Assembly: GCA_964555245.1 (NCBI GenBank)
Contig: CAZKRI010000032.1
Location: 93,239-157,238, forward strand
Length of the DNA stretch: 64,000 bases
Direction of reading: 5' to 3'
DNA from: an uncultured Myxococcales bacterium
GTDB taxonomy: Bacteria; Desulfobacterota; Binatia; UBA1149; SPBQ01
Shown: in pieces, positions 8,863-51,115 of the stretch
Layout of the letters: the number at the start of each line of letters is the position of its first letter
How positions within the stretch are numbered: position 1 is the first letter of the stretch
Notes under the pieces: model-generated
What the model was told of the DNA's origin: nothing
What the model saw: the letters and a program-made list of their open reading frames with translations, nothing else
The model's database searches: none
Program-made: the position numbers and the translations under genes

Positions 8863-9639
8863 TCACAGAGTGTAGCGGCCGTCCTCGGTCAGGCGCCATC
8901 CGCCGGCGGCGGCCGTGCCACCGTCCACGTGCAGCGTCGTCCCGGTCACGAACAGCGATAGATCGGAGGCGAGGAACAGCGCCGCGCCCGCGACGTGGTT
9001 GGGGTGCCCCTTGCGTGCCAGAGGCGCACGCACCTGCGGATCTCCGATTCCCGGCGTGGGGATCAGGTCGGGCGCGATGGCATTGACGCGGATCCGCCGC
9101 GCGCCGAGCTCCAGAGCAAGGGTCCTGGTCAGGTTCTCGACCGCGGCCTTCATCGCCGCATAGATCGCGTATCCCGGGGCACCGCGCCCGGCTTCGATCG
9201 AGCTGATGTTGAGGATCGAGCCGCCGGTATCGGGAAACAGCGGGAGCGTCGCGCGGATGCAGTTCGTCACGCTCGTGAAGTTCTCCGCAATGAGGGCGTC
9301 CTGCGCATGGGCACTGAGCTCCGCGAACGCGGCGTGAAAACCCCCTCCGGCGTTGTTGACGAGCACGTCGACCCGGCCGGCTTCCGCACCAACCCGGGCG
9401 ACGAACGCGCCCACGGCCTCGCCGTCGCGCACGTCAAGGCGCCCGGTCCATGCCCGCCGGCCCAGGGCCCGCACCGAGCGCGCGGTCGTCTCGAGGTTCA
9501 CCTCGTCGCGGTCGCAGATCGCCAGGTCGGCGCCGAAGCTGGCCAAGGTCAGTGCGATCGCCTCGCCGATCCCGGCGGCGGCCCCGGTAACGAGCGCGAC
9601 GCGGCCTTCCAGCGAGACGGTAGCAGGACCGAGCGGCAC
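8863..9639 (-). CDS. Short-chain dehydrogenase/reductase (SDR).
   Basis: VTGAAAGIGEAIAL Rossmann motif, NNAG, and catalytic YAAMKAAV. Confidence 0.85.
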   Translation of the reverse strand: MPLGPATVSLEGRVALVTGAAAGIGEAIALTLASFGADLAICDRDEVNLETTARSVRALGRRAWTGRLDVRDGEAVGAFVARVGAEAGRVDVLVNNAGGGFHAAFAELSAHAQDALIAENFTSVTNCIRATLPLFPDTGGSILNISSIEAGRGAPGYAIYAAMKAAVENLTRTLALELGARRIRVNAIAPDLIPTPGIGDPQVRAPLARKGHPNHVAGAALFLASDLSLFVTGTTLHVDGGTAAAGGWRLTEDGRYTL

Positions 9640-9710
9640 CGGCCCAAGCTATCAGCCGGACCTCCGCTCGTCACGCCGCCGCCCGGCACCAAGCCTGCCA
9701 CGATCGCGCG

Positions 9711-10292
9711 GTGGACGTTCGCGAGCGAAGGGTCCTGGTCAGAACCGCCGCCGTGCATGAGAATGCCGCCGTGAGCTGGCTGGCACACGCGGCCGGAACC
9801 GGCGCGACGTTTGCGCAGGTGTTCGGCCTTTGCCCAGAGCTTCATCGTGGGTTCGAGCGTTTTTACGGATTGTTCTGGCAACGGCGGCTCGTGGATCCGG
9901 TGGTACTCGAGCTGTGCCGGTTGCAGGTGGCCGCGCTGCTCGGCTGCACCGTCGAGCGCGAGGTGCGCTACCGCGCCGCCGTCGAAGCCGGGTTGACGGA
10001 AGCCAAGGTTGCCGAGCTTTCCCGCTGGCGAACCAGCCCGAGCTTCAGCGAACTGGAGCGGGCTTGCTTGGGTTTCGCGCAGCGGTTCGTCACCGACGTG
10101 CACGGGCTTACCGATGAGGACGTCGCCGCTGTCTCTCGTCTGCTCGGCGAACCGGGAACGGTGGCGCTCGCCGAGGCGATCGCCTTGTTCGAGGGCTTCT
10201 GCCGCTTCCGCCTCGCGCTGGACGTCCAGAGCGAGGTCCAGGGGACCGTTCCCACTCCGACGGCCGAGCCCACGGGTAGGCTCGAACGATGA
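9711..10292 (+). CDS. Carboxymuconolactone decarboxylase (CMD/AhpD-like) family protein. Start uncertain (in-frame GTGs downstream of the ATG at 9711).
   Basis: AhpD-like core (…LELCRLQVAALLGCTVEREV…). Ends in ATGA overlap with the next gene. Confidence 0.55.
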   Translation: MDVRERRVLVRTAAVHENAAVSWLAHAAGTGATFAQVFGLCPELHRGFERFYGLFWQRRLVDPVVLELCRLQVAALLGCTVEREVRYRAAVEAGLTEAKVAELSRWRTSPSFSELERACLGFAQRFVTDVHGLTDEDVAAVSRLLGEPGTVALAEAIALFEGFCRFRLALDVQSEVQGTVPTPTAEPTGRLER

Positions 10293-10822
10293 CCAAGCGT
10301 CCGCGCAGCCCGCGTATCCGCCCCCCGCAGCAAGCGGCCGCCGATCCCATTGCCGGCAGTGCGCTCAGCCACCAGCCCGAAACCCTACGGGCGTTCCTCG
10401 ATCTCTACGCAACGCTGTGGGAGGGAGGCTCGGTGGATGCCGCGACCAAGGAGATGGTTCGGCTGCGCAACGCGCAGATCACCGACTGCGGCTATTGAAA
10501 GAACGTTCGCTTCGCCGTGGCGAAGGAGCAGCTTGTCGACGAGTCCGCGGTCGCCCAGATCCAAAATCACCGCGCGTCGACCGTGCTCACCGCACGCGAC
10601 AAGGCGCTGCTCGCTTACGTGGACCTGCTGCTAACGATACCTGGTGCGATCGACGAGCGGGTGACCGCGCAGCTGCTGACGCACTTCTCTCCCGCGCAGA
10701 TCGTCGAGCTGACCGCAGCCGCGGCCGTGTTCCTCGGGTTCTCCAAGCTCGCCATCGCCCTGGGTCCGGTACCGGACGATCTGCCCCGGATGCTCATGCC
10801 GCTGCCCGCTCGCCCCGACTGA
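10289..10822 (+). CDS. AhpD/CMD-family protein read through an in-frame TGA (10496..10498) at the second Cys position of CxxC (…RLRNAQITDCGY-U-KNVRFAVAKEQ…). Candidate selenoprotein; alternatively a pseudogene.
   Basis: ORFs 10289..10498 and 10517..10822 are in the same frame, separated only by the TGA. Family motif C-x-x-C. Stem-loop cuucgc/cgug/gcgaag at 10510..10525 begins 11 nt 3' of the UGA. Confidence 0.55.
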
Positions 10823-10834
10823 ACCCTTCTCGGG

Positions 10835-12196
10835 TCAGCCGGCTAGGGACGCGCCCGCCGCCCCGGCGCTGCCGCAATCGAGACTGGCGCACAGCTCGGC
10901 GAAGCTCTTCACCGTGTGCCGCTTGGCCAGCGACCGGATGCGGGTCGCCGGTCCGATCAGACCGGCAGTGGACAAGACCACGTCGGCGTCCACGGAGGCA
11001 ACCGCGGCCGGCGCGGTCAGCCCGGCGCGCAGCGTCGCCGCAACGGCGACCTCGGCGTAAGCCGCGGCGAACTCGTCGGCGTCGCCGGGACTGTCCCACG
11101 TGGTGAGCCACACGAACTCCAGCCGGGTCCCGCAGCGGGCGACGAGATAGCGATCGCCGTTCCACCCTTCCCAGGCCTCCGGCCGGGCGCTGGCTGCCAG
11201 ATCCCGGAAGAGATAGCTCAGCCCGAGCTCGCCAGCCGTGTTCTCGTAGACGAACGCGCATTCGGCGGGCAGCAGTTCGCGCAACGGGCGCAGATCGATC
11301 GACTGGAAGCCCTCCTCGCGCCGCGAGGGATGGAGCACCTGTTCGGTCGAGATCGGCGGACGTTCCAACAAAAGATCAGCCTCGAGCATGGCGAGTCGGT
11401 AGCCCTTGGTGTAGGGGAACGGCACACCGTAGCGGATCATCGCCGCGCGCTCGTGTAGCCGATTCTCCGAGAGTTCCGCATCGAGGCTCGACTCCAGGTC
11501 GACGGGTGCGGGCGGCGTCATCCGGGCATCGAGCGCCTGAAAGCTGATGCGGACGGCGTCGCCCTCAATCGCCGCTTGCAGCGCCGCCACCACGTCATCC
11601 TGATCCTGCAACGTCTGCGTGGCGCCGATCAGCGCCGGGTAGGCTTGGTGTTGCAGCAGGTGAGTCAGCTCGTGCCCGAGCAACAGCTCACGGGCGAGGT
11701 CGCGCCCCATGAGCGCAGAGACCAGGGAGACCGAGAACGGCGTCTCCGGCTCGTCGACCACGTAGAGCACGCGCCGGCTCGGAACGTAGAGCCCGCCAGC
11801 CTCGGCGCCGACGCTGTCGACGAACTCGGTGAACAGGTCTTGGTCGCGGGGCCATAACCCCACGGCGACCAACCCATCCTGATAGGCGGCCGCCGCCTGG
11901 GGTGGCCACTGCTCCTCCAGCGCGCGCGCCACCGCGGCGCGTAGATCCCCGCTGCTCACGACGCGCGCGTCAACCAGGCCGCGGGCTTGGATCCCGCGCG
12001 CCTGTTCGACGCGGGCGATGATGGCAGCGAACGGCTCGGGACGGATCGCGCCGTCCGAGACGATCGAGCGCGCGCAACCTGCGGCCGCTGCGACGCCTGC
12101 CAGCGCGAGGACCAGCAGAACCCGGGCGCCAGAACCCGATCGCGCGACGGCCTGCCGGCCCGACGATGCGATGCCCGGATGCCGCACGCTAGCCAC
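10835..12196 (-). CDS. Lipoprotein with HExxH zinc-metallopeptidase-like motif (GHELTHLLQH).
   Basis: Lipobox LLVLALAGVAAAAGC, HELTH motif. No confident family assignment. Confidence 0.55.
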   Translation of the reverse strand: MASVRHPGIASSGRQAVARSGSGARVLLVLALAGVAAAAGCARSIVSDGAIRPEPFAAIIARVEQARGIQARGLVDARVVSSGDLRAAVARALEEQWPPQAAAAYQDGLVAVGLWPRDQDLFTEFVDSVGAEAGGLYVPSRRVLYVVDEPETPFSVSLVSALMGRDLARELLLGHELTHLLQHQAYPALIGATQTLQDQDDVVAALQAAIEGDAVRISFQALDARMTPPAPVDLESSLDAELSENRLHERAAMIRYGVPFPYTKGYRLAMLEADLLLERPPISTEQVLHPSRREEGFQSIDLRPLRELLPAECAFVYENTAGELGLSYLFRDLAASARPEAWEGWNGDRYLVARCGTRLEFVWLTTWDSPGDADEFAAAYAEVAVAATLRAGLTAPAAVASVDADVVLSTAGLIGPATRIRSLAKRHTVKSFAELCASLDCGSAGAAGASLAG

Positions 12197-13192: not shown

Positions 13193-13723
13193 ATGACCCG
13201 GCGGACTTTCATCGAGCGATCCTTGTTGCTAGGGAGCCTGTGGTTGGTGGGCCCGGCGTGTGCCCGCAGCGAGCGGACCACCAGTGCCACCGAGCCGTCA
13301 TCCGACATCGAGCGCTTGGCCAAGCCACGGGAGGAATGGCGGCGGCTCCTGGGACCGCAGCGCTACGCGGTGCTCTTCGAGGAGGACACCGAACCGCCCT
13401 TCTCGAGCCCGCTCAACGATGAGAAGCGGGCGGGCACCTTCGTCTGCGCGGCGTGCTATCTGCCGCTGTTCGCCTCGGATGCGAAGTTCGACAGCGGCAC
13501 GGGTTGGCCCAGCTTCACACGGCCGATCGAGGGGCACGTCGGCCTCGAGGACGATTTCAAACTCCTGCTGCGCCGCACCGAATACCACTGCATCCGCTGC
13601 GGCGGGCACCAGGGGCACGTCTTCGAGGACGGGCCGCCCCCCACCGGGCAGCGTTGGTGCAACAACGGCTTGGCGCTCGAGTTCGTCCCCGCCGAACTAC
13701 CCCTGCCTCGGCTACGCACATGA
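13193..13723 (+). CDS. msrB: Peptide-methionine (R)-S-oxide reductase MsrB with Tat-type signal (RRTFIERS).
   Basis: CAACYLPLF…GWPSF…HCIRCGGHQGHVFEDGP…RWCNNG are classic MsrB motifs. ATGA overlap with msrA. Confidence 0.85.
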   Translation: MTRRTFIERSLLLGSLWLVGPACARSERTTSATEPSSDIERLAKPREEWRRLLGPQRYAVLFEEDTEPPFSSPLNDEKRAGTFVCAACYLPLFASDAKFDSGTGWPSFTRPIEGHVGLEDDFKLLLRRTEYHCIRCGGHQGHVFEDGPPPTGQRWCNNGLALEFVPAELPLPRLRT

Positions 13724-20513: not shown

Positions 20514-21122
20514 TCACCTGGAGCTAGCCTCGCGTCGTAGCGGGACGCCGGCCGCAGAGGCGCGCGCTGTCTCCTCGTCGAGGGTCAAACCGAAGCCGTC
20601 GGCAAGGCGGGTCAGGTAGTTGAAGATGCCGACGATGTGTCCGACCTCCAAACAGGCGCGGTCGTCGAAACCGAGCGCACGTAACGGTTGCCAGTCGGAC
20701 TCGACCATCTTGGTCGGGGTGGCGCTGAGCTTCTCGGCAACTTCGCACAGGGCGCGGTCGCGCGTGGACAGGCTCCCCAGCGCGCGCCAGCGCCGGGCCT
20801 TGATCGCGTCCACCAGCTCCGCGTCCCCGTGCTCGACACGCAGAAACTCTGCGTGGGACTGCGTTCAATAGAAACAGTCCTGGGCGGCTGCGGTTACTGC
20901 CGCGACCATCTCCCGTTCGCGCCGGTCGAGTGATCCCGGAGCAAACATGATCTGTGCAAACAGCAAGCCGAAAGCCGGACCGAGATCGCGGTGCGCCATG
21001 ATCAGACCGGCCATCGTCGGCAAAAAGCCGAAGTCGTAGGGATGCCCGGACGGCATCGCAGCGCGCAGCTCGGTCTGGTCCGGGAGCGCGACCCATGCGG
21101 GTGGTGGTAATGTTTGGCTCAT
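20514..21122 (-). CDS. Peroxidase-related / AhpD-like CMD-family protein read through an in-frame TGA (20865..20867) inside C-F-Y-U-T-Q-S-H, i.e. CxxUxxxH where the family has CxxCxxxH. Candidate selenoprotein. Start ATG 21122 (MSQTLPPP), preceded by GGAGGA.
   Basis: ORFs 20865..21149 and 20514..20813 are in the same frame, separated by 17 sense codons after the TGA. Perfect stem-loop cacgcag/aguuu/cugcgug (20855..20837) begins 10 nt 3' of the UGA. Confidence 0.6.
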
Positions 21123-22981: not shown

Positions 22982-23443
22982 GTGTCCGACGTGCGCGAGA
23001 CCGAACCGCCGTCCGCCCGGCTACGAGAGCTGATCTTCAAAGCCAACGAAGAGACCTTTCGCGCCTGGAACGCGCACGACGCCGCGGCCGTGGCTGCAGT
23101 GTTCGCACCAGAGGCCGTGGTGGTCGACGTGCTGACCGGCGAAACCATCACCGGACGCGAGGCGATCCGGACGCGTACGGCTTCGCTGTTCGAGGCTTTT
23201 CCCGACCTGTCGCTGACCCGCGTCATGCTGCTCATCGATACCGCGACCAACGCCGATCAATGGGTCATGCGAGGCACGCACCGCGGCCCGTTCCTCGGGA
23301 TTCCACCCAGCGGCCGTAGATTCGAGGTGCGCGGCGCAACCTTCAGCGAGTTCGATCAGGCCGGCCTGGTGGTGCGCGACACCAACTACGTCGACGTCGC
23401 GGCTTTGCTCGCGCAGATCAGCCCCGCGCGGGCTGAAGGCTGA
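22982..23443 (+). CDS. SnoaL-like / NTF2-fold protein (ester cyclase-like), GTG start.
   Basis: Family-typical pattern …WNAHDAAAVAAVFAPEAVVVD…, about 150 aa. Confidence 0.6.
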   Translation: MSDVRETEPPSARLRELIFKANEETFRAWNAHDAAAVAAVFAPEAVVVDVLTGETITGREAIRTRTASLFEAFPDLSLTRVMLLIDTATNADQWVMRGTHRGPFLGIPPSGRRFEVRGATFSEFDQAGLVVRDTNYVDVAALLAQISPARAEG

Positions 23444-28824: not shown

Positions 28825-29586
28825 TCAGATGCTCATCATCCCCCGGCGTGGGACGTTGGTTCCGTAGGTTTCGCTCGCGATCGGGGCGCCCATCTCGGCC
28901 AAGACCGTGCGCTGTTGCGCGAGCGGAGTGCGCATCGAGCGATCCTCGAACGGCCTGAGCCGCGCGAATTCATCGAGCGCCAGAACACGGTCGACGTATC
29001 CCGCAGTTCGGGGCCAGCGAGCCGATTCGATCGAGAAGCCTGCGAATGCGGCGTTGCGGAAGAACGTCGCGATCGAGATGTCGGCAATCGAAGGCGCGCC
29101 GAACAAGAATCCGTCCGGCGGCGCGATGCTCTCGAGGTAGTCGAGCACACTTGGGATTTCTTCCCGCCGCGCGCGCTCGACGACGGCCTCGTCGGTCGGC
29201 TCCCCCCAGACGAACGGCCGGATGACGAGCTGATTGAAGAAACGCCAGATCAGCACCTCTCCCATGCGCGTGTCGGCGAACTCCTCCAACCAGCGGGCCT
29301 TCGCCCGGTCCACCACGTCGATCGGATAGAGCGCGGGCTCTGGATAACGGTCCTCGAGGTACTGACAGATGACCGAGGAGTCGGCGAGCGTGACCCGGTC
29401 GTCCACGAGTACGGGAACCCGGCGCACCGGGCTCAGCTTGGCGAATCGGTCATCGCCCAGAAACGGAACGATCGGATCGATGCGGTACGGTATGCCCTTG
29501 AAGTGCAGGACGACCAAGACTTTGCGGACGTAGGGGGAGACGTACGATCCAATGATCGTGACCGGGGGTCGCGCGACCTCAGGCAT
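28825..29586 (-). CDS. Glutathione S-transferase family protein.
   Basis: Thioredoxin-like N-domain (VSPYVRKVLVVLHFKGIPY…RRVPVLVDD) and helical C-domain. Confidence 0.75.
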   Translation of the reverse strand: MPEVARPPVTIIGSYVSPYVRKVLVVLHFKGIPYRIDPIVPFLGDDRFAKLSPVRRVPVLVDDRVTLADSSVICQYLEDRYPEPALYPIDVVDRAKARWLEEFADTRMGEVLIWRFFNQLVIRPFVWGEPTDEAVVERARREEIPSVLDYLESIAPPDGFLFGAPSIADISIATFFRNAAFAGFSIESARWPRTAGYVDRVLALDEFARLRPFEDRSMRTPLAQQRTVLAEMGAPIASETYGTNVPRRGMMSI

Positions 29587-36174: not shown

Positions 36175-37371
36175 TCAGAACACATCCATCGTGGGGAACG
36201 CGTCCGTAGCCCGGATGCAACTCCACAGGTAGATCGCCAGGCCGAGATCTCCCGTCCACAGCGAGTATCGATAGCGGCCGTACTCCTCGTGGTGCCGTTC
36301 GCACTGCGCGATCCCGTGCATCGCGAACGCTCGCGCCCGATCCAGCCAGAGCTGGTTCCGAGTCCGGCGAAAGAGCTTGAGGAAGGCGTAGCCGTTGCCC
36401 GCCGTTCCGTGACAGAGATTGGCGCCCTTTTGCAGGGGACCAGCGGTCCAGATCAGCTCTCCTGCTTCGCTCAGCAGCTCATCGAGGGCGGAATCAGGAA
36501 GCTCGGCAAGGCAAGTCACCACGCCCGGGGCGCCGTGACAGTGTTGGACCAGCAGCGCGGTGCGGCCGGGCCGCGGGGTGCCCACGCTCTGAGGCCAGTT
36601 TACCCGGCCCTCTGCGCGCAGTGCCGTCGCGGTGATGGTCTCCACGATGCGACGTTGCCACTGGCGCCAATCGGCCGGCGGCAGCACTCGGCGACCGCGA
36701 ATGAGGGCGAACGCGTTGCCCGCGAAGCCATGGACGGCGCCCAACAGCTTGGAACGGGCGCCGAGAAAATCTTGCGTCCAGAGATAGCAGCCGTGCTCGG
36801 AGTCTTGCTCGAGTGCGCGGCCGAGCGCGCTGGCGCTACGGCGAAACAGTTCGGCCCAGGACTCATCCCCGGTCCACTCATGCATCGCGAGCGCCGCCAG
36901 CATGGTTCCGGGCGAGCCCAACATGAGCTCGAGGGCTGGGTGCTCCTCGTTCCCCGAGATCGCCTTGGCAAGCTCCGTCGCAACTTCCGGCGAGCGGCTC
37001 CGCTTCCAGGAGAGCAGAAGAATGCCGGCATCTCCCACGAGCAGGGAACCGGTGTCCGGCGTGAAGAGCCGGACGGTGGCGCGATTCGGCTCGAGCAGTC
37101 CGGCCAGCGCCTCCGCGAAATCCGCGGGCGGTCCTGCCGCGCCAACCTCGTGGAGATAGTCGAGGCCCCACATGACGCCGGCCGCGCCGAAGTAGAGCAT
37201 CCGCAGCGGTTCGGTCGCAGCCGGGGAGTCGAGAGCATGGGCCGGCCACAGGCCGTTCGTCGTAAAGTCCCGTTGCGTCGCGGCCGCGATCCGCTCGATG
37301 GCGTCCCGAGCCGCGGCCACGTCCCACGGCGTGCCGATGAGTGGCTCGTGTCTCTCGGTCTCGAACAACAT
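36175..37371 (-). CDS. LanC-like protein (lanthionine synthetase C-like fold), stand-alone.
   Basis: Conserved LanC motifs: …AHG-like, VQHCHGAPGVV (WCxG/CHG) and LCHGTAGNGYAF. Size about 400 aa. Confidence 0.7.
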   Translation of the reverse strand: MLFETERHEPLIGTPWDVAAARDAIERIAAATQRDFTTNGLWPAHALDSPAATEPLRMLYFGAAGVMWGLDYLHEVGAAGPPADFAEALAGLLEPNRATVRLFTPDTGSLLVGDAGILLLSWKRSRSPEVATELAKAISGNEEHPALELMLGSPGTMLAALAMHEWTGDESWAELFRRSASALGRALEQDSEHGCYLWTQDFLGARSKLLGAVHGFAGNAFALIRGRRVLPPADWRQWQRRIVETITATALRAEGRVNWPQSVGTPRPGRTALLVQHCHGAPGVVTCLAELPDSALDELLSEAGELIWTAGPLQKGANLCHGTAGNGYAFLKLFRRTRNQLWLDRARAFAMHGIAQCERHHEEYGRYRYSLWTGDLGLAIYLWSCIRATDAFPTMDVF

Positions 37372-43745: not shown

Positions 43746-44210
43746 TCACTCCGTCACCGCGACGTTCTCACCGCGGCCGTCGATTGCGTTGCGCAAGGTG
43801 TGCCAGGCCAAGGTGGCGCACTTGACCCGCAGCGGATACTGGCGGACGCCCTCGAAGACCGCGAGCTTGCCGATCTCGACCGGCTCGCCGGGCTCCGCGC
43901 CGGCATCCTTTTGGCCGGTCACGGTCTCGCGCAAGCGACGGAACAAGGCGCGCGCGTAGCCGACGGTCTTGCCTTTGACGGCCTCGGTCATGAGCGACGC
44001 GGACGCGGTAGAAATCGCGCAACCCGCGCCTTCGAAGCGAATGTCCTTGACGGTCTCGCCCTCGACGTCGAGGTAGAGTCGAATCTTGTCGCCACAGAGC
44101 GGATTGTAACCTTCGGCACGGTGGGTGGCGCGCTCGAGCTTGCCGTAGTTCTTGGGCTGCCGGCTGTGATCGAGAATGGTCTCTTGGTAAAGCTCGCGCA
44201 GCTCGGACAT
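43746..44210 (-). CDS. sufU: SufU/IscU-like Fe-S cluster scaffold / sulfur acceptor.
   Basis: NifU-N-like domain with Cys ligands (NPLCGDKIRL…GAGCAISTASASL…VKCATLAW). Confidence 0.85.
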   Translation of the reverse strand: MSELRELYQETILDHSRQPKNYGKLERATHRAEGYNPLCGDKIRLYLDVEGETVKDIRFEGAGCAISTASASLMTEAVKGKTVGYARALFRRLRETVTGQKDAGAEPGEPVEIGKLAVFEGVRQYPLRVKCATLAWHTLRNAIDGRGENVAVTE

Positions 44211-45481
44211 CAGAGCAGCACCTTACGCACGTGATCGAGGCCGGCCACGAGCCGGTCGACGTCCTCTTTCGTGTTGTAGATCGCGAACGAAGCGCGCGCC
44301 GTGGCCGGCACGCCGAACCGTTGCATCACCGGCTGCGCGCAGTGGTGGCCGGTGCGAACCGCGATTCCTTCGTGGTCCAGGATCGTTCCGATGTCATGCG
44401 GGTGGCAGCCGTCGATCACGAAGGAGTGGACAGCGGCTTTGTCGGCGGCAGTCCCGATCAATCGCAGCCCCCGCACGGTAGCGAGGGCCGGCTCCGCATA
44501 CTCGAGCAACTCGCGCTCGTAGGCGGTGACCGCATTGATGTCCAGGCCGATCAGGTAGTCGACGGCTGCACCCAGCCCGATCGCCCCGGCGATATCCGGC
44601 GTCCCCGCCTCGAACTTGTGCGGAATCTCGTTGTAGGTCGTGCGTTCGAAGGTCACCGACAGGATCATCTCGCCCCCACCCTGCCAGGGCGGCATCGCTT
44701 CGAGCAGGCTTGCCTTGGCGTAGAGCGCGCCGATGCCGGTGGGTCCGTAGGCCTTGTGGGCGGAGAGCGCGTAGAAGTCGCAGTCGAGATCCTGGACGTC
44801 CACCCGCATGTGCGGAACGGCCTGCGCGCCATCGACCAGAACGGGCACGCCGTGGGCGTGGGCCATGCGGACGATCTCCTTGACCGGGTTGACGGTGCCC
44901 AACGCGTTGGAGACATGCACCAGAGCGGCGATCTTCGTGCGCGGCGACAAGAGCTTGGCGAGCTCATCGAGGATTAGCTCGCCGCGGTCGTTGATCGGCG
45001 CTACTCGAAGCCGCGCACCGGTCTGCTCGCAGAGGATCTGCCACGGCACGATGTTGGAGTGATGCTCCATGGCCGTGATCAGCACCTCGTCGCCCGAGCC
45101 CACGTGGCTGCGCCCGTAACTCTGGGCGACCAGATTGATCGCCTCGGTGGTGCCGCGCACGAAGACGATCTCGCGAATGTCCCGCGCGTTCAGGTACATC
45201 TTGACCTTGCCGCGAGCTCGCTCATACGCGAACGTCGCGCGCTCGGCCAGCGAGTGGACGCCGCGGTGAACGTTGGCGTTGTCCTGCTCGTAGTAGCTCA
45301 GGATTGTATCGAGCACCTGGCGCGGCTTCTGTGAAGTGGCTGCGCTGTCCAAGTAGACCAGGGGCTTGCCGTGAACCTCCTGCTGGAGGATCGGAAACTC
45401 GTCTCGCACGTTGCGCGCCACACCGAATCCGGCGAGCGACTCGGTGGCCTTGCGGGCGAGCTGCTGAGCGCGCGGCATCAT
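44210..45481 (-). CDS. sufS: Cysteine desulfurase SufS (PLP-dependent, class V aminotransferase family). Start set to ATG 45481, right after the sufD stop; the long upstream extension in the ORF track is rejected.
   Basis: …LVYLDSAATSQKP…RGVHSLAERATFAYE…HVSNALGTVNPV…SAHKAYGPTGIGALY… motifs. Operon context. Confidence 0.9.
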   Translation of the reverse strand: MMPRAQQLARKATESLAGFGVARNVRDEFPILQQEVHGKPLVYLDSAATSQKPRQVLDTILSYYEQDNANVHRGVHSLAERATFAYERARGKVKMYLNARDIREIVFVRGTTEAINLVAQSYGRSHVGSGDEVLITAMEHHSNIVPWQILCEQTGARLRVAPINDRGELILDELAKLLSPRTKIAALVHVSNALGTVNPVKEIVRMAHAHGVPVLVDGAQAVPHMRVDVQDLDCDFYALSAHKAYGPTGIGALYAKASLLEAMPPWQGGGEMILSVTFERTTYNEIPHKFEAGTPDIAGAIGLGAAVDYLIGLDINAVTAYERELLEYAEPALATVRGLRLIGTAADKAAVHSFVIDGCHPHDIGTILDHEGIAVRTGHHCAQPVMQRFGVPATARASFAIYNTKEDVDRLVAGLDHVRKVLL

Positions 45482-45482
45482 C

Positions 45483-46838
45483 TCAGGGCTTTCTGCCCGC
45501 AATGGGCTCATGTTGGCTCGGCGCGAGCCCGGAAAGATCGCGTTCGAGCGCGCTGCGCAGTTCGGCCGGTTGGAGCGTGGCGAGCACCTCTGCCGCAAAA
45601 CCGTAGGTGAGCAGGGCGCGAGCGCTCGCTTGGTCCAGACCACGCTGGCGCAGGTAGAACATGGCGTCTTCGTCCAGATGTCCGACGGTCGCGCCGTGGG
45701 TGCAACGCACATCATCGGCGTGGATCTCGAGCTGCGGCCGCGTCTCCACCAGGGCGCCTTCGCCTAGCAGCAGATTCTTGTTCGTCTGCTCGGCGCTCAC
45801 CTGCTGGGCGTCACGGCGCACCTTGACGCTGCCCGTGAACACACCGCGGGCCTGGCCATCGAGAATGCCTTTGTACAGCTCGCGACTGGTCGTTCGAGCC
45901 ACCGCGTGGTCGATCACGGTGTGATGATCGACGTGCTGGCGTCCGCCGATCATGTAGAGCCCATACAGCGAACAGCTTGCCCCGTGTCCAGATAGCACGG
46001 TCGCGATCTCCGTCCGCGACAGCGCGGCGCCGAACGCGACCGCATGGGACGCGAACGTGCTGCCGGCCTCCTGAAACACCTGAATGCGATGGACGTGGAA
46101 CGCGCGCGCATCCTCTTTCTGAATCTTGCAGTGCGAAAGCGTCGCGTCGACGCCGAGCGCGATCTCGGTGACGGCGTTGGTCAGGTAAGGATGCTGGGCG
46201 TCACCCAGATAGTGTTCGACGACGGCGGCACGCGCTCCTGGCTCCACCAAGATGAGATTCCGGAGATGCGCAAGCGTCGGCTCGGACGTCGCCTCGGCGT
46301 AGAAGACGAGGTGGATGGGGTTGATGCAGCTCGTTGCGCGAGGCACCCGGACGATCGCGCCATCTTCAAAGAACGCCGTGTTGAGCGCGGCGAACCCATG
46401 CACACCGTAGTCGAGCTGGCGTGCGAGCGTCCCCGACAGACCCCCATCCTCCGCTTCGATGCGGGGGCGAATGCTGCCCGCTAGATCTGAGAGCGCTGGC
46501 TCGCCGGATCGCGATAGCTCGGCCATGAAGTGGCCGTTGACGAAGACCAAAACGGTCGCGGCCTTGTCCGCCGGGATCGAGGCGACGGCGCGAGCCACAG
46601 CCGCCCGGTCGAAGCTCAGTCCGGAGCGCGCGACCCGCCGGAACGGGATCTGAAGAAGCGAGCCGACGCTGGTGTACTTCCAGTCCTCGTTCTTGGATCC
46701 AGGGAAACCGATCTCGGCGAACCGCCCGATCGCCGAACGACGCAGATCGCCAATCCAGCCTGCGCCACCGGCCAGCTCACCGCGGGATCTTTCGAACTCC
46801 GCCAGAAAGCTCTCTCGTGCCTGTACGGTCGTGGCCAT
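45483..46838 (-). CDS. sufD: Fe-S cluster assembly protein SufD.
   Basis: SufB/SufD-family beta-helix C-terminal region. Position between sufC and sufS. Confidence 0.85.
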   Translation of the reverse strand: MATTVQARESFLAEFERSRGELAGGAGWIGDLRRSAIGRFAEIGFPGSKNEDWKYTSVGSLLQIPFRRVARSGLSFDRAAVARAVASIPADKAATVLVFVNGHFMAELSRSGEPALSDLAGSIRPRIEAEDGGLSGTLARQLDYGVHGFAALNTAFFEDGAIVRVPRATSCINPIHLVFYAEATSEPTLAHLRNLILVEPGARAAVVEHYLGDAQHPYLTNAVTEIALGVDATLSHCKIQKEDARAFHVHRIQVFQEAGSTFASHAVAFGAALSRTEIATVLSGHGASCSLYGLYMIGGRQHVDHHTVIDHAVARTTSRELYKGILDGQARGVFTGSVKVRRDAQQVSAEQTNKNLLLGEGALVETRPQLEIHADDVRCTHGATVGHLDEDAMFYLRQRGLDQASARALLTYGFAAEVLATLQPAELRSALERDLSGLAPSQHEPIAGRKP

Positions 46839-46847
46839 CTTGGGGGT

Positions 46848-47607
46848 TCAGGCCGGAGTCGCCTGCGTCTCGATCCAGCCGTAACCCCGCTGCTCGACCT
46901 CGCGCGCCAGCTCGGGACCGCCCGAGCGGACGATGCGCCCAGCGGCGAGCACGTGGGTGTGATCGGGAACCACATGGTCGAGCAAGCGCTGGTAGTGGGT
47001 GATCACGATCATCGCGCGCTGGGGAGAGCGTAGCGCGTTGATGCCGCGGGCGACGGTTTGCAGCGCGTCGATGTCGAGGCCCGAATCGGTCTCGTCCAGA
47101 ATCGCCAGCCGCGGCTCCAGCATGGTCATCTGGAAAATCTCGTTGCGCTTCTTCTCTCCGCCCGAGAAGCCGTCGTTGAGCGGCCGGTTGAGCAGATCTT
47201 CCTTCATGTCGACCAGGCTCAACTTCTCGCGAGCCAACTTGAGGAAGTCCATCGCGTCCAATTCGGGACGGCCGCCGTGACGGCGGACGGCGTTGAGAGC
47301 TTCCTTGAGGAAGTAGGCCGTGCTCACGCCGGGAATCTCAACGGGGTACTGGAACGAGAGGAACACGCCCTCGCGCGCGCGCTCTTCGGGTGGCATCGCC
47401 AACAGATCACGCCCCTCGAACAGAACCTGGCCGGCCGTCACCGTAAACGCTTCGCGCCCGGTCAACACTCCGGCCAAGGTGCTCTTGCCCGAGGCGTTAG
47501 GCCCCATGACCGCGTGGACCTCGCCGGCGCGCACCGTCAGATCGATCCCTCGCAGGATCGGCTTGCCCTCGACTTGGGCGTGAAGGTTGCGAATCTCGAG
47601 CATCACC

Positions 47608-47615
<8 letters not shown>
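46848..47615 (-). CDS. sufC: Fe-S cluster assembly ATPase SufC.
   Basis: [44 protein letters not shown] signature LSGGEKKR, Walker [11 protein letters not shown]. Confidence 0.9.
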
Positions 47616-49068
<1,453 letters not shown>

Positions 49069-49081
49069 GCTCGCTACCTCC

Positions 49082-49570
49082 CTACCCCTCACGCACGACC
49101 GGCGCGCCGGTTTGCGTCCCGCGGGCCATCTCGGTGATCCACGCCAGCGGTGGCTGCGCACCGGCCGCCAGATCGGCCACCGTGATGCTCGAAAGCGCGG
49201 CGTGCAGCAGAGCGTTGAGGCTGGTCCAGACCGCTCGGATCGAACAGTTGGGTGTGTGAACGCAATCTCTGAGCGCGCCCGGATGCGCCTCGCAGAAGGA
49301 GTCGGGGAACAACGGGCCGCCCAGGATGGTCAGGGCATCCCAGAGCGTGACGTCTCCAGCGGGCCGGCTCAGCTGATAGCCACCCGCCGCTCCACGCGTG
49401 CTGCTCACCAGGCCGCCTTGCCGCAGGATCCGCATCAGCTTGGCGACGTACTCGGGACCCAGGCCCTCGGCGGTCGCGATCTCCTGGATCCGCATCGGCT
49501 GAGCCACCTCGTGACGCGCGAGCTGGAGCAGGCAGCGAAGACCGTACTCTTCCTGGGATGAGAAATGCAC
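49082..49570 (-). CDS. Rrf2-family transcriptional regulator (IscR/SufR-like) with three C-terminal Cys (candidate Fe-S ligands). Probable leaderless GTG start at 49570.
   Basis: [13 protein letters not shown]…[10 protein letters not shown] Rrf2 wHTH signature. Cys cluster [19 protein letters not shown] sigma70-like promoter sits 7 nt upstream of the GTG. Confidence 0.75.
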
Positions 49571-49577
49571 TGGGCGA

Positions 49578-49606
49578 GGTATAGGGAATCTATACCGACT
49601 AGTCAA
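49578..49606 (-). promoter_or_regulatory. Sigma70-like promoter (minus strand TTGACT-17nt-TATACC) overlapping two palindromes (GGTATAG-N5-CTATACC and GACTAGTC). Candidate autoregulatory operator of the Rrf2 regulator and suf operon.
   Basis: Read directly. The -10 hexamer ends 7 nt before GTG 49570. The palindromes overlap the -35/-10 elements, as is typical of IscR-type sites. Confidence 0.4.
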
Positions 49607-49742
49607 TATTGGGGTCAGGTCACACTTAATAAGGGCCGCCACCCATCTGGGGCCCACGGCATTCCGACCGCTGGCCTTACGGCGATACTAAATTCGAACT
49701 TTTCCGTTTGACTCTAGTAGTACGGGCATCCAGGCTGCCCCC

Positions 49743-50468
49743 GTGCCCGATTTCCAGTACCCGCAATTCTGCGCGGTGGCTCGAGCGGCCGAGGTCGTCG
49801 GTGAGCGCTGGACCCTGCTGCTACTGCGGGAGCTGTTCTTCGGCCCGCAACGCTTCAGCGACCTGCGCCGCCAGTTGAGTCAGGTGAGCCCGAGCGTACT
49901 CAGCGAGCGTCTGGGGTTGCTCGAAGCGCAGGGGATCATCCGTAAGCGGGAGCTCGAGCCTCCGGCGGCCGCGACCGTCTACGAGCTTACCGAGGACGGC
50001 CACGCTTTCGGTCCCGCGCTCATCGCGCTGGCGCGTTGGGGGATGCGCTTCCTGCTACCGGCTCGGCCCGGCGATCAGATCGACGTCGGGCGCCTCGCGT
50101 TCATGCTTCAGCAATTCGCGCGCGCTTCCGCCTCCCCCGCCCTTTCCTGTGCTCTGCATGTGACCGACCCGGGCAAGTCGCGCCGGATACTCCTGGCCGG
50201 CGGCGCGACAGGAACTCAGGTCACCGAGATGAGCGCTACCACCGCCGCACCCGCGGTCGACGTCACGGTGGAAGCGAGCGCCTTGGACTTGGTCGGAGTC
50301 CTGATGCAAACGATCGATCTAGCGGTCGCCGAGCGCGAGGGGCGCGTTCGGATCAGTGGCGACCGAGCAAAACTAGCCGAGCTGCCCCAACTCTTCGAGA
50401 TCGAACCATCCCATTCCCGAACGATCTCGTTGTCCCCCCAACCCAACCAACAAGGAGAAACGTCATGA
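49743..50468 (+). CDS. HxlR-family winged-helix transcriptional regulator with a C-terminal extra domain.
   Basis: CAVARAAEVVGERWTLLLLRELFFGPQRFSDLRRQL HxlR signature. Divergent from rrf2. Confidence 0.7.
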   Translation: MPDFQYPQFCAVARAAEVVGERWTLLLLRELFFGPQRFSDLRRQLSQVSPSVLSERLGLLEAQGIIRKRELEPPAAATVYELTEDGHAFGPALIALARWGMRFLLPARPGDQIDVGRLAFMLQQFARASASPALSCALHVTDPGKSRRILLAGGATGTQVTEMSATTAAPAVDVTVEASALDLVGVLMQTIDLAVAEREGRVRISGDRAKLAELPQLFEIEPSHSRTISLSPQPNQQGETS

Positions 50469-51115
50469 GCACGTTACACGGAGTCAATGCCTCACCGTTC
50501 GTTCGCAAGGCGCGCATCGCGCTGAAGGAGAAGGGCATCGCCTACACCCTCAATCCCGTCTTTCCGATCAACGTGAGCGAAGAGTACCGCAAGATGAGCC
50601 CGCTCGGGAAGGTCCCCTGCTACACGACGCCGAAAGGTGACAACATCCCGGACTCCTCCGTGATCATCGCCTACCTCGAGCGCGTCCAGCCCAAGCCGCC
50701 TCTGTATCCGGCCGACGCGGTCGAGTTCGCCCGTGCCCTTTACTTCGAAGAGTACGGTGATTCGGGGCTCATGGGACAGATCGGTCCGGTGTTCTTCAAC
50801 CGCATCGTCGGCCCCAAGTTCATGAACAAGCCGGCCGATGAGGCCGCGATCAAGCTGTCGCTGGAGACCGGGCTGCCGCCGTTGCTCGCCTACCTCAACG
50901 AGCAGACCAAGGACAAGCGGTTCCTCGTGGGCGACGCCTTCAGTGTGGCCGACATCGGAATCACCTCGCCGTTCATCAATCTCATGCACGCTGGCGAGGA
51001 CGTCGACGCCAAGAAGTACCCGCACCTGGCTCGATACCTGGCCAACATGTTCGAGCGGCCCTCGATCAAGGAGCTGATCGACGAAGAGAAGGCCCTGTTC
51101 CCACGCGCGGCTTGA
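50465..51115 (+). CDS. Glutathione S-transferase. Start at MSTLHGV (ATG 50465, AAGGAG RBS, ATGA overlap with hxlR-like gene).
   Basis: GST N-domain (ASPFVRKARIALKEKGIAY…VPCYTT) and C-domain (FSVADIGITSPF). Confidence 0.8.
   Translation: MSTLHGVNASPFVRKARIALKEKGIAYTLNPVFPINVSEEYRKMSPLGKVPCYTTPKGDNIPDSSVIIAYLERVQPKPPLYPADAVEFARALYFEEYGDSGLMGQIGPVFFNRIVGPKFMNKPADEAAIKLSLETGLPPLLAYLNEQTKDKRFLVGDAFSVADIGITSPFINLMHAGEDVDAKKYPHLARYLANMFERPSIKELIDEEKALFPRAA

Follow-up and report, generated by a model that had tools for sequence, protein, structure and literature searches.

Two adjacent CMD-fold genes and an in-frame TGA codon

The window analyzed here (i.e., the whole stretch of DNA, 64 kb in length) contains two overlapping genes, designated A and B, that encode paralogous proteins of the CMD/AhpD fold, as well as a more distant gene of the same fold (Table 1). 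Translation of the window showed that the open reading frames 10289..10498 and 10499..10822 form a single frame, which opens with ATG 10289, closes with the TGA at 10820..10822 and has the TGA at 10496..10498 as its sole interruption, in agreement with the initial annotation of this DNA; across the stop, the translation reads EMVRLRNAQITDCGY, the stop codon itself and then KNVRFAVAKEQL.

Table 1. Features of the A-B locus and of the second CxxU gene in the window
Feature	Position	Strand	Description
Gene A	9771..10292	+	CMD-fold paralogue of gene B; PF02627 41.3 bits
Gene B	10289..10822	+	177 codons; one CMD/AhpD-fold gene, predicted Sec at codon 70
Gene B active-site motif			E55...C67-G-Y-U70-K-N-V-R74
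In-frame TGA	10496..10498	+	Read as selenocysteine (predicted); second Cys position of CxxC
SECIS-like stem-loop	10505..10529	+	RNAfold approx. -13 kcal/mol
Lower stem	10505..10508 / 10526..10529		GUUC/GAGC, 4 bp; bulged G 10509
Core stem	10510..10515 / 10520..10525		CUUCGC/GCGAAG, 6 bp
Loop	10516..10519		CGUG
GTG codon	10517..10519	+	Gene-caller start of a 101-aa ORF (P0001); within the hairpin loop
Second CxxU gene	20514..21122	-	AhpD-like, TIGR01926 type; motif DCFYUTQSH
TGA of second CxxU gene	20865..20867		
Hairpin of second CxxU gene	20837..20855		CACGCAG-AGUUU-CUGCGUG, 9 nt past the UGA

When read through, gene B matches the Pfam model PF02627 (CMD) with 45.3 bits (cutoff 23) over residues 30-111, a span that includes the stop. 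A Cys homologue (P0003; 49% identity to gene B) carries GCGYCKNVRF at the motif, and the TGA corresponds to the second Cys of this sequence. Profile alignment of residues 25-159 to solved AhpD-like structures in the PDB likewise runs without interruption across the TGA. Both the family assignment and the placement of the UGA at the second Cys of CxxC, as initially proposed, are borne out by the PF02627 match, by the alignment to P0003 and by the alternation of TGA with TGC and TGT among relatives.

Distribution of TGA and Cys codons among related loci

The codon at the position of the in-frame TGA was compared between the window and 88 related loci. TGA was found at 39 of these loci (and at L001, a duplicate of the window), TGC at 44 and TGT at 5, and neither TAA nor TAG occurred at this position in any of the 88 related loci or in the window. 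In nearly every complete locus, the frame following the TGA remained open for 104-112 aa, up to a normal C-terminus, as compared to 101-115 aa in the Cys forms, and in a neighbor-joining tree TGA and Cys forms were intermixed, with approx. 8 TGA clades. A scan of a genome collection with the Cys homologue returned one locus. Among the 150 best cluster representatives from a library of 1.8 billion proteins, at least six proteins end exactly before the selenocysteine (Sec) residue, and 17 have their start immediately past it, which is the signature of TGA genes that have been split erroneously. Overall, these comparative data lend support to Sec as the residue encoded by the TGA of gene B.

A conserved stem-loop accompanies the TGA codon

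The 6-bp stem with a CGUG loop that had been noticed initially, starting 11 nt 3' of the TGA, is present at 10510..10525, and folding of the RNA past the UGA (RNAfold) predicted a longer structure, in which the core is extended by a lower stem (Table 1). The loop begins 17 nt 3' of the UGA. Among TGA-type relatives the hairpin follows the consensus CUUCGC-N4-GCGARG; all loops contain G, and 28 of 29 loops of TGA-type sequences contain GU. A small apical loop that contains G is a criterion for bacterial SECIS elements (PMC1088965), and the gene B hairpin has this feature.

Of 36 distinct TGA-type sequences, 35 had the complete in-register 6-bp stem, as compared to none of 48 Cys-type sequences, where the mean was 3.1 pairs (P approx. 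7e-23, Fisher's exact test, not corrected for phylogeny). L051 is the only exception, and there a double change (C to A plus G to U) preserves an 8-bp stem in a shifted register. Codon choice differed between the two types in the same region: the codon for Ala72 is GCG in all 36 TGA-type sequences as compared to 25 of 48 Cys-type sequences, and at codon 73 TGA-type sequences have AAG or AGG, the latter being rare otherwise, where Cys-type sequences have CGN. Moreover, 95% of stem cells were paired in register, as compared to 33-55% in slid controls. These data indicate that the hairpin is maintained by synonymous codon choices that are fixed in TGA forms, as would be expected of a bacterial SECIS element.

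In register, a formal test on the hairpin detected changes from U-A to U-G only and no two-sided covariation; the structural argument for the stem thus rests on its conservation and on the contrast between TGA-type and Cys-type sequences. Since the stem encodes the conserved peptide R-F-A-x-A-K, its conservation is partly a matter of the protein. In an 81-nt window of this sequence (66% GC), the local fold was no more stable than that of shuffled sequence (z = +0.28), and as the fold alone is not significant, the significance of the hairpin derives from the comparative data. A search of Rfam around the hairpin gave no match at the gathering threshold or at E values up to 10, save for a chance match to a snoRNA. 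We also considered an intrinsic terminator, which was rejected as there was no terminator or promoter match in 9500..11000.

Probable selenium use by the organism

Approximately 10 kb from gene B, a second gene with the CxxU motif is encoded on the opposite strand. It matches TIGR01926 with 113 bits (cutoff 81.8), and it shows 26% identity to gene B, with CFYU aligned to CGYU. With a hairpin of its own, this gene provides the only support within the window for Sec decoding by the organism. No selA, selB, selD or tRNA-Sec (selC) was found within the 64-kb window by Pfam and NCBIfam scans of approx. 40 ORFs, by ARAGORN or by Rfam. A 96-nt "tRNA-Ala(ggc)" called by ARAGORN at 22986..23081 on the reverse strand was considered as a possible mis-called tRNA-Sec and rejected, as it has no Rfam support and is situated where a SnoaL ORF begins. 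A scan of the whole window for in-frame TGA codons with coding-like flanks returned the gene B site, ordinary neighboring genes that share a frame, and antisense shadows; the TGA at 20865 fell below the thresholds used. We infer from gene B and the gene at 20514..21122 that the organism decodes Sec, and the two genes together probably mark it as a selenium user.

One could propose that the UGA is read without selenium, either by near-cognate insertion of Cys or Trp or in a lineage that has lost the Sec pathway, so that the gene would be poorly expressed or silent and yield at best small amounts of a Cys or Trp variant. The lack of Sec machinery among the genes of the window is in keeping with this proposal; metagenome bins are often incomplete. 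Against it, the window has an intact SECIS-like hairpin, which L003, a diverged relative, carries in identical form, and a second TGA gene with a hairpin, from a different CMD subfamily, has been kept in the same window. Without SelB, the upkeep of TGA and hairpin would have no known benefit. We therefore regard reading of the UGA without selenium as unlikely.

Selection downstream of the TGA and the integrity of gene B

As TGA can arise from a Cys codon by a single base change, gene B might be a pseudogene, i.e., a Cys-type CMD gene hit by a TGC- or TGT-to-TGA nonsense mutation, with both halves decaying; public gene calls, which list the halves as separate small ORFs, and the lack of Sec machinery in the window could both be read this way. 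L003, which comes from another sample and shows 88% amino acid identity to the window variant, retains the TGA, however, and the codons downstream of the TGA show 13 synonymous and 12 non-synonymous differences between the window and L003. In the 48 conserved C-terminal codons, the same comparison yielded 7 synonymous differences and no non-synonymous differences, which points to purifying selection on the sequence 3' of the TGA. Together with the recurrence of the TGA at 39 loci in approx. 8 clades, whose frames are intact and normal in length, the absence of TAA and TAG at this position, the occurrence of the hairpin with TGA only and the presence of a TGA at the same catalytic position in a second gene of the window, this selection brings the pseudogene reading close to refutation, and we consider it very improbable.

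Equally improbable, in our view, is the production of two polypeptides, in which translation would stop at UGA 10496 (69 aa) and restart at GTG 10517 (101 aa), with the split CMD domain assembled from both parts. This GTG is in frame, 18 nt past the stop, and is the start chosen by gene callers. It lies in the hairpin loop, however, with no Shine-Dalgarno sequence ahead of it, and in 21 of 30 distinct TGA-type sequences the 15 codons after the TGA contain no in-frame ATG, GTG or TTG. The codons between TGA and GTG moreover encode the family-invariant K/R-N-V-R-F, including the invariant Arg74, and a split would sever the catalytic helix and part its two redox residues. GTG 10517 is thus probably not a real start codon, and independent expression of the second half from it, which the initial annotation had named as an outcome that would contradict read-through, is opposed by the location in the loop, the lack of a Shine-Dalgarno sequence and the lack of a counterpart in most relatives.

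With these alternatives weighed, it is highly likely that 10289..10822 constitutes one gene encoding a 177-residue CMD/AhpD-fold selenoprotein, in which the UGA at 10496..10498 would specify Sec, the hairpin would act as the SECIS element and the product of gene A would be the partner.

Gene A as a redox-degenerate partner

The ATG of gene B overlaps the stop codon of gene A (10290..10292) in the sequence ATGA, as initially described. The extent of gene A is to be corrected: its longest ORF runs from GTG 9711, the start assumed initially, and GTG 9771 (MSW...) is the likelier start as it fits the homologues (the L002 homologue begins MSWIDA). Gene A shows 31% identity to gene B and had been regarded as a Cys-type CMD paralogue. 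Its motif, however, reads LLGCTVERE, i.e., C-T-V-E (C-x-x-E) rather than CxxC, and among relatives CxxE was found in 17, AxxP in 26 and other motifs in 7. Given this degeneration of the redox motif, to CxxE or to AxxP, gene A is not a Cys-type copy.

Gene A was located directly upstream of gene B in all 71 loci with enough sequence, often with an overlap of 1-4 nt, and in some organisms A and B are fused as one protein; translational coupling of the two genes, proposed initially from the ATGA overlap, is plausible on these grounds. Beyond the A-B pair, no conserved neighbor was recurrent, the top clusters being antisense shadow ORFs. Given the degenerate redox motif of A, its constant presence next to B and the fusion of the two in some organisms, A and B probably work together as a pseudo-dimer that has one active site. 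This architecture is supported by a confident AlphaFold model of a fused A-B homologue (P0004), which represents that homologue and not the pair of this organism. The model reached a pLDDT of 91.5 and a pTM of 0.92, and its B domain matched AhpD-like structures with TM scores of 0.75-0.80 relative to the target.

Over its whole length, the P0004 model had human Sestrin2 (PDB 5dj4, 5cuf) as its best match, and both have two AhpD/CMD-like domains per chain; the match is weak (E approx. 1e-3, TM 0.55-0.60, rmsd approx. 10 A, 11-12% identity). Only one of the Sestrin2 domains reportedly retains the redox motif. The redox-active domain is C-terminal (B) in A-B, and the window contains two genes rather than a fusion. 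We thus treat the likeness to Sestrin2 as an architectural analogy only.

Predicted active site and mechanism

The closest solved relatives of gene B are PA0269 of Pseudomonas aeruginosa (PDB 2ijc, 2o4d), Atu0492 (2gmy) and M. tuberculosis AhpD. Residues 25-159 of gene B match the PA0269 profile with E = 3e-16, and E55 and C67 align to Glu36 and Cys48 of PA0269. The proton-relay arrangement Glu...Cys-x-Tyr-Cys is matched by E55...C67-G-Y69-U70 in gene B, the second Cys being replaced by predicted Sec in gene B and conserved as Cys in its Cys-type homologues. The relay His four residues past the second Cys (His55 in PA0269, His137 in M. tuberculosis AhpD) is reported to be invariant and essential in the AhpD-like family (PMC3141380). 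In the gene B subfamily, on the other hand, this position is occupied by an invariant Arg (R74); E55, C67 and R74 were all invariant in 65 of 65 distinct motif sequences. A further difference is that PA0269, Atu0492 and M. tuberculosis AhpD are homo-oligomers, whereas gene B has a dedicated paralogous partner.

Under the preferred reading, UGA 10496..10498 would be recoded as Sec, with the stem-loop 10505..10529 acting as a bacterial SECIS that directs SelB, with Sec-tRNA(Sec), to a ribosome that has paused at this codon; recruitment of SelB to this hairpin is suggested by the standard bacterial mechanism. In the C-x-x-C redox motif, the Sec would stand in for the second Cys, which in M. tuberculosis AhpD is Cys133, the attacking nucleophile. 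The selenolate would then attack an oxidized substrate, and Cys67 would resolve the resulting selenenyl-sulfide. The product of gene B, which would be made together with that of the overlapping gene A, is most likely a thiol/selenol oxidoreductase or a peroxidase-type enzyme.

Relation to known selenoproteins

The CMD/AhpD-like family has been known since 2005 to include CxxU selenoproteins, and gene B adds one member. The CMD domain-containing or "AhpD-like 2" selenoproteins share with gene B the PF02627 domain, CxxU with Sec at the second Cys, abundant Cys homologues and, directly past the UGA, a stem-loop of bacterial type whose small apical loop contains G; judged from these published descriptions, gene B may belong to the same subfamily. 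The obligate redox-degenerate partner and the Arg in place of the relay His were both absent from the published accounts of CMD/AhpD-like selenoproteins consulted for comparison.

AhpD-like 1 proteins, i.e., TIGR01926 "peroxidase-related enzyme" (COG2128), and NF041238 (AhpD_rel_CFYUT) have the fold and CxxU position of gene B. Gene B scored below the cutoffs of both models (52.7 as compared to 81.8 bits for TIGR01926, for which the Cys homologue P0003 scored 39.2 bits, and 18.7 as compared to 175 bits for NF041238), and its motif is CGYUK, not CFYUT. NF053654 "YciW-related (seleno)protein", a CMD-fold model with Sec and Cys members, was the best or second-best NCBIfam match for A, B and the fused homologues; with scores of 38-69 bits (43.5 for B, 38.5 for A) against a cutoff of 310 bits, these proteins are distant relatives rather than members. 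Overall, no curated NCBIfam selenoprotein model reached its cutoff with gene B, and because none covers the subfamily, annotation pipelines will keep splitting its genes.

As selenoproteins of this kind are already known, the finding is mainly an annotation correction. Gene B and dozens of its metagenomic relatives are stored publicly as two meaningless small ORFs, and reading the TGA as Sec joins the halves into a complete redox enzyme. The under-called selenoproteome suspected initially is confirmed as far as gene B is concerned, whose halves are held in the public collection as separate proteins of 69 and 101 aa. As CxxU proteins with the AhpD/CMD fold rank among the most common selenoproteins known from bacteria, the scientific gain is modest. 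The subfamily goes slightly beyond the ordinary in its constant degenerate paralogous partner and its Arg for the catalytic His, and the tight link between TGA and hairpin, which holds across Sec and Cys lineages that are interspersed, clearly illustrates how a SECIS is kept by selection on synonymous sites.

More tentatively, the A-B pair might represent a distinct, uncatalogued selenoprotein family, although we consider this rather doubtful. Such a family would be defined by an obligate two-gene, sometimes fused module with a redox-dead partner (CxxE or AxxP), the motif E...C-x-x-U/C-x-x-x-R, a Sestrin-like two-domain architecture and a SECIS formed from the codons for R-F-A-x-A-K and lost at each replacement of Sec by Cys. 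If so, it would offer a clean natural series on the decay as compared to the persistence of a SECIS within a coding region.

Position of the internal TGA in gene B

The CMD/AhpD-fold gene studied here (gene B) runs in one frame from an ATG at 10289 to a TGA at 10820..10822 and has a single internal stop, a TGA at residue 70, around which the translation reads ...KEMVRLRNAQITDCGY, stop, KNVRFAVAKEQL...; its ATG and the stop of the upstream ORF share an ATGA overlap. The frame, its lone TGA, this overlap and the hairpin downstream are in the sequence as the initial annotation had described them. With a Cys put in at the stop before the search, the product matched the Pfam CMD family (PF02627, cutoff 23) with 45.3 bits over residues 30-111, i.e., across the stop. 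A profile of the gene B family aligned contiguously, over residues 25-159, with the solved AhpD-like PA0269 (2ijc, 2o4d), 7xw1 and Atu0492 (2gmy), with its C-x-x-C on the Cys-Ala-Tyr-Cys of the solved AhpD-like proteins. The nearest full-length homologue, the Cys-containing P0003, is 49% identical and carries the motif GCGYCKNVRF. This homologue and the structure-profile alignments therefore place the TGA exactly at the second Cys of CxxC, as had been proposed initially.

Coordinates of gene B and other features in the window
Feature	Position	Strand	Description
Gene B	10289..10822	+	internal TGA 10496..10498
Gene B hairpin	10510..10525		CUUCGC-CGUG-GCGAAG, 11 nt past the TGA
MsrB gene	13193..13723	+	Pfam 'SelR' domain, normal Cys-type ORF
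Second TGA gene	20514..21122	-	AhpD-like; TGA 20865..20867; motif DCFYUTQSH, CxxU position
Second TGA gene hairpin	20837..20855		CACGCAG-AGUUU-CUGCGUG, 7 bp, starting 9 nt past the UGA
SnoaL-like ORF	22982..23443		
ARAGORN 'tRNA-Ala (ggc)'	22986..23081	-	96 nt
Glutathione S-transferase gene	28825..29586	-	
LanC-like protein gene	36175..37371	-	
SUF Fe-S assembly operon	43746..49657	-	Rrf2 regulator, SufB, SufC, SufD, SufS, NifU-like protein
Glutathione S-transferase gene	50036..51115	+	

Alternation of TGA and Cys codons among relatives

The DNA of relatives was obtained from exact look-ups of truncated proteins that phmmer had found among 1.8 billion representatives and from one metagenome scan, which returned 80 loci. 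Among the best 150 representatives, about 101 carried CxxC, at least 6 proteins ended exactly one residue before the second Cys and 17 started just past it. At this position the related loci had TGC in 44 cases, TGT in 5 and TGA in 39, not counting L001, which duplicates the window; TAA and TAG never occurred among these loci. Past the TGA, nearly all complete loci had an open frame of 104-112 codons, as compared to 101-115 in Cys forms. A locus from a different sample (L003; protein 88% identical) retained the TGA and differed downstream of it by 13 synonymous and 12 non-synonymous codons; all 7 differences in the conserved last 48 codons were synonymous. TGA and Cys forms were interspersed in a neighbour-joining tree, with about eight TGA clades.

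If the two halves of gene B were expressed independently, the second would start at GTG 10517, where gene callers do begin a 101-aa ORF (P0001). This reading is unsupported, as the GTG sits within the hairpin loop, no Shine-Dalgarno sequence was found for it, 21 of 30 distinct TGA-type sequences lack any in-frame start-like codon in the first 15 codons past the TGA, and the codons skipped by such a start encode an invariant K/R-N-V-R-F segment. Decay of a pseudogene explains neither the codon alternation nor the open frames, the L003 pattern or the interspersed tree.

Hairpin downstream of the TGA

Beyond a bulged G, the hairpin is prolonged by a lower stem (GUUC/GAGC), so that the longer structure spans 10505..10529. 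An 81-nt segment containing the hairpin folded no better than shuffled sequences (z = +0.28); at the 66% GC of the window the hairpin is by itself unremarkable, and the case rests on comparison with relatives. Of 36 distinct TGA-type sequences, 35 had all six in-register pairs; no Cys-type sequence out of 48 did so (3.1 pairs on average; P about 7e-23, Fisher's test, uncorrected for relatedness). The single outlier (locus L051) kept an 8-bp stem, shifted in register by one codon, through a C-to-A and G-to-U double change. The Ala72 codon was GCG in 36/36 TGA-type and 25/48 Cys-type sequences, and at residue 73 TGA types had the Lys codon AAG or the Arg codon AGG, as against CGN Arg codons in Cys types. 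Loops varied freely (AGGU, GGUC, CGUG, AGUU, GGGC), with G always present and GU in 28 of 29. A formal count found 95% of cells paired, against 33-55% in slid controls, and no two-sided covariation in register, all changes being U-A to U-G; what argues for hairpin function is therefore the conservation of synonymous sites and the strict co-occurrence with TGA rather than classical covariation. In a numbering with the U of UGA as position 1, loop G22/U23 lies within one nucleotide of G23/U24, the positions contacted by SelB in E. coli fdhF. By the published criterion, a bacterial SECIS lies immediately 3' of the UGA and has a small apical loop that includes a G (PMC1088965).

Because the stem is identical in kind and placement across every TGA clade, the simplest history would start from a Sec-containing ancestor, with Cys replacing Sec repeatedly and the hairpin decaying each time. 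In two Cys-type loci (L052 and L062), five of the six stem pairs and AGG, a rare codon for Arg, persist past the TGC; these loci may be recent Sec-to-Cys conversions, the hairpin perhaps being a SECIS relic.

Probable selenocysteine use and known selenoproteins

The codon, frame and hairpin comparisons support the initial reading of gene B, which is very probably a UGA-read-through CMD/AhpD selenoprotein. No tRNA-Sec, selA, selB or selD was found within the 64-kb window, and the one organism-level support for Sec use is the second TGA gene, which is of the TIGR01926 type (113 bits, above cutoff) and retains the canonical relay His. The ARAGORN tRNA-Ala (ggc) call, unconfirmed by Rfam and overlapping the start of the SnoaL-like ORF, is most likely spurious and is not a tRNA-Sec.

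Both the AhpD-like (COG2128/TIGR01926) and the CMD-domain (PF02627) type of CxxU selenoprotein were reported in 2005, and they count among the selenoproteins that are most abundant in bacteria (PMC1088965, PMC2398784, PMC13188914). Gene B represents a kind already known, the gain being an annotation fix and some subfamily-level peculiarities. It scores above the PF02627 threshold but below the cutoff of every curated NCBIfam (seleno)protein model, which is probably why it is listed publicly as two ORFs.

Upstream partner gene

Gene A, upstream, encodes a CMD-fold paralogue of B (31% identity; PF02627, 41.3 bits). GTG 9711 opens its longest ORF; homologues, including that in the related locus L002, start at the position of GTG 9771 (MSW...), which is probably the true start, making the annotated 193-aa product 20 residues too long. 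Gene A was directly upstream of B in 71 of 71 loci with enough sequence, often with overlaps of 1-4 nt, and fusion of the two in many organisms gives a single protein of 330-360 aa (310-360 aa for P0004 and about 20 others). Since gene A has C-T-V-E at the place of the redox motif in the window, and CxxE (17), AxxP (26) or other motifs (7) across the family, it is a redox-degenerate partner, and its initial description as a Cys-type paralogue (backup copy) does not hold. In the confident AlphaFold model of the fused P0004 (pLDDT 91.5, pTM 0.92), the domain for B can be superposed on those of PA0269 and Atu0492 (TM 0.75-0.80 relative to target). The best whole-length PDB match of this model, which represents the fused homologue only, is human Sestrin2, likewise with two AhpD-like domains; this match is weak (TM 0.55-0.60, E about 1e-3).

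Predicted chemistry and gene neighbourhood

The relay of PA0269 and MtAhpD consists of Glu, Cys, (Tyr/His), Cys and His (PMC3141380). Gene B has Glu55, Cys67 and Tyr69, with Sec70 in place of the second Cys, whereas the relay His position is an invariant Arg (R74; 65 of 65 distinct motif sequences) in its family, which is a separate subfamily. Given these residues, the product would be expected to be an AhpD-type thiol/selenol oxidoreductase, in which the selenolate of Sec70 would attack as nucleophile and Cys67 would then resolve the product.

The neighbourhood is loosely redox-themed (MsrB, glutathione S-transferases, SUF operon), a context not conserved across loci of A-B homologues. The LanC-like protein resembles the cyclase portion of lanthionine synthetases of classes II-IV, with scores that fall far short of the cutoffs, and no adjoining kinase or dehydratase domain was detected. 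SufS of the SUF operon has an N-terminal extension and scored 692 bits with the family 2A encapsulin cargo cysteine desulfurase model, below its 800-bit cutoff.
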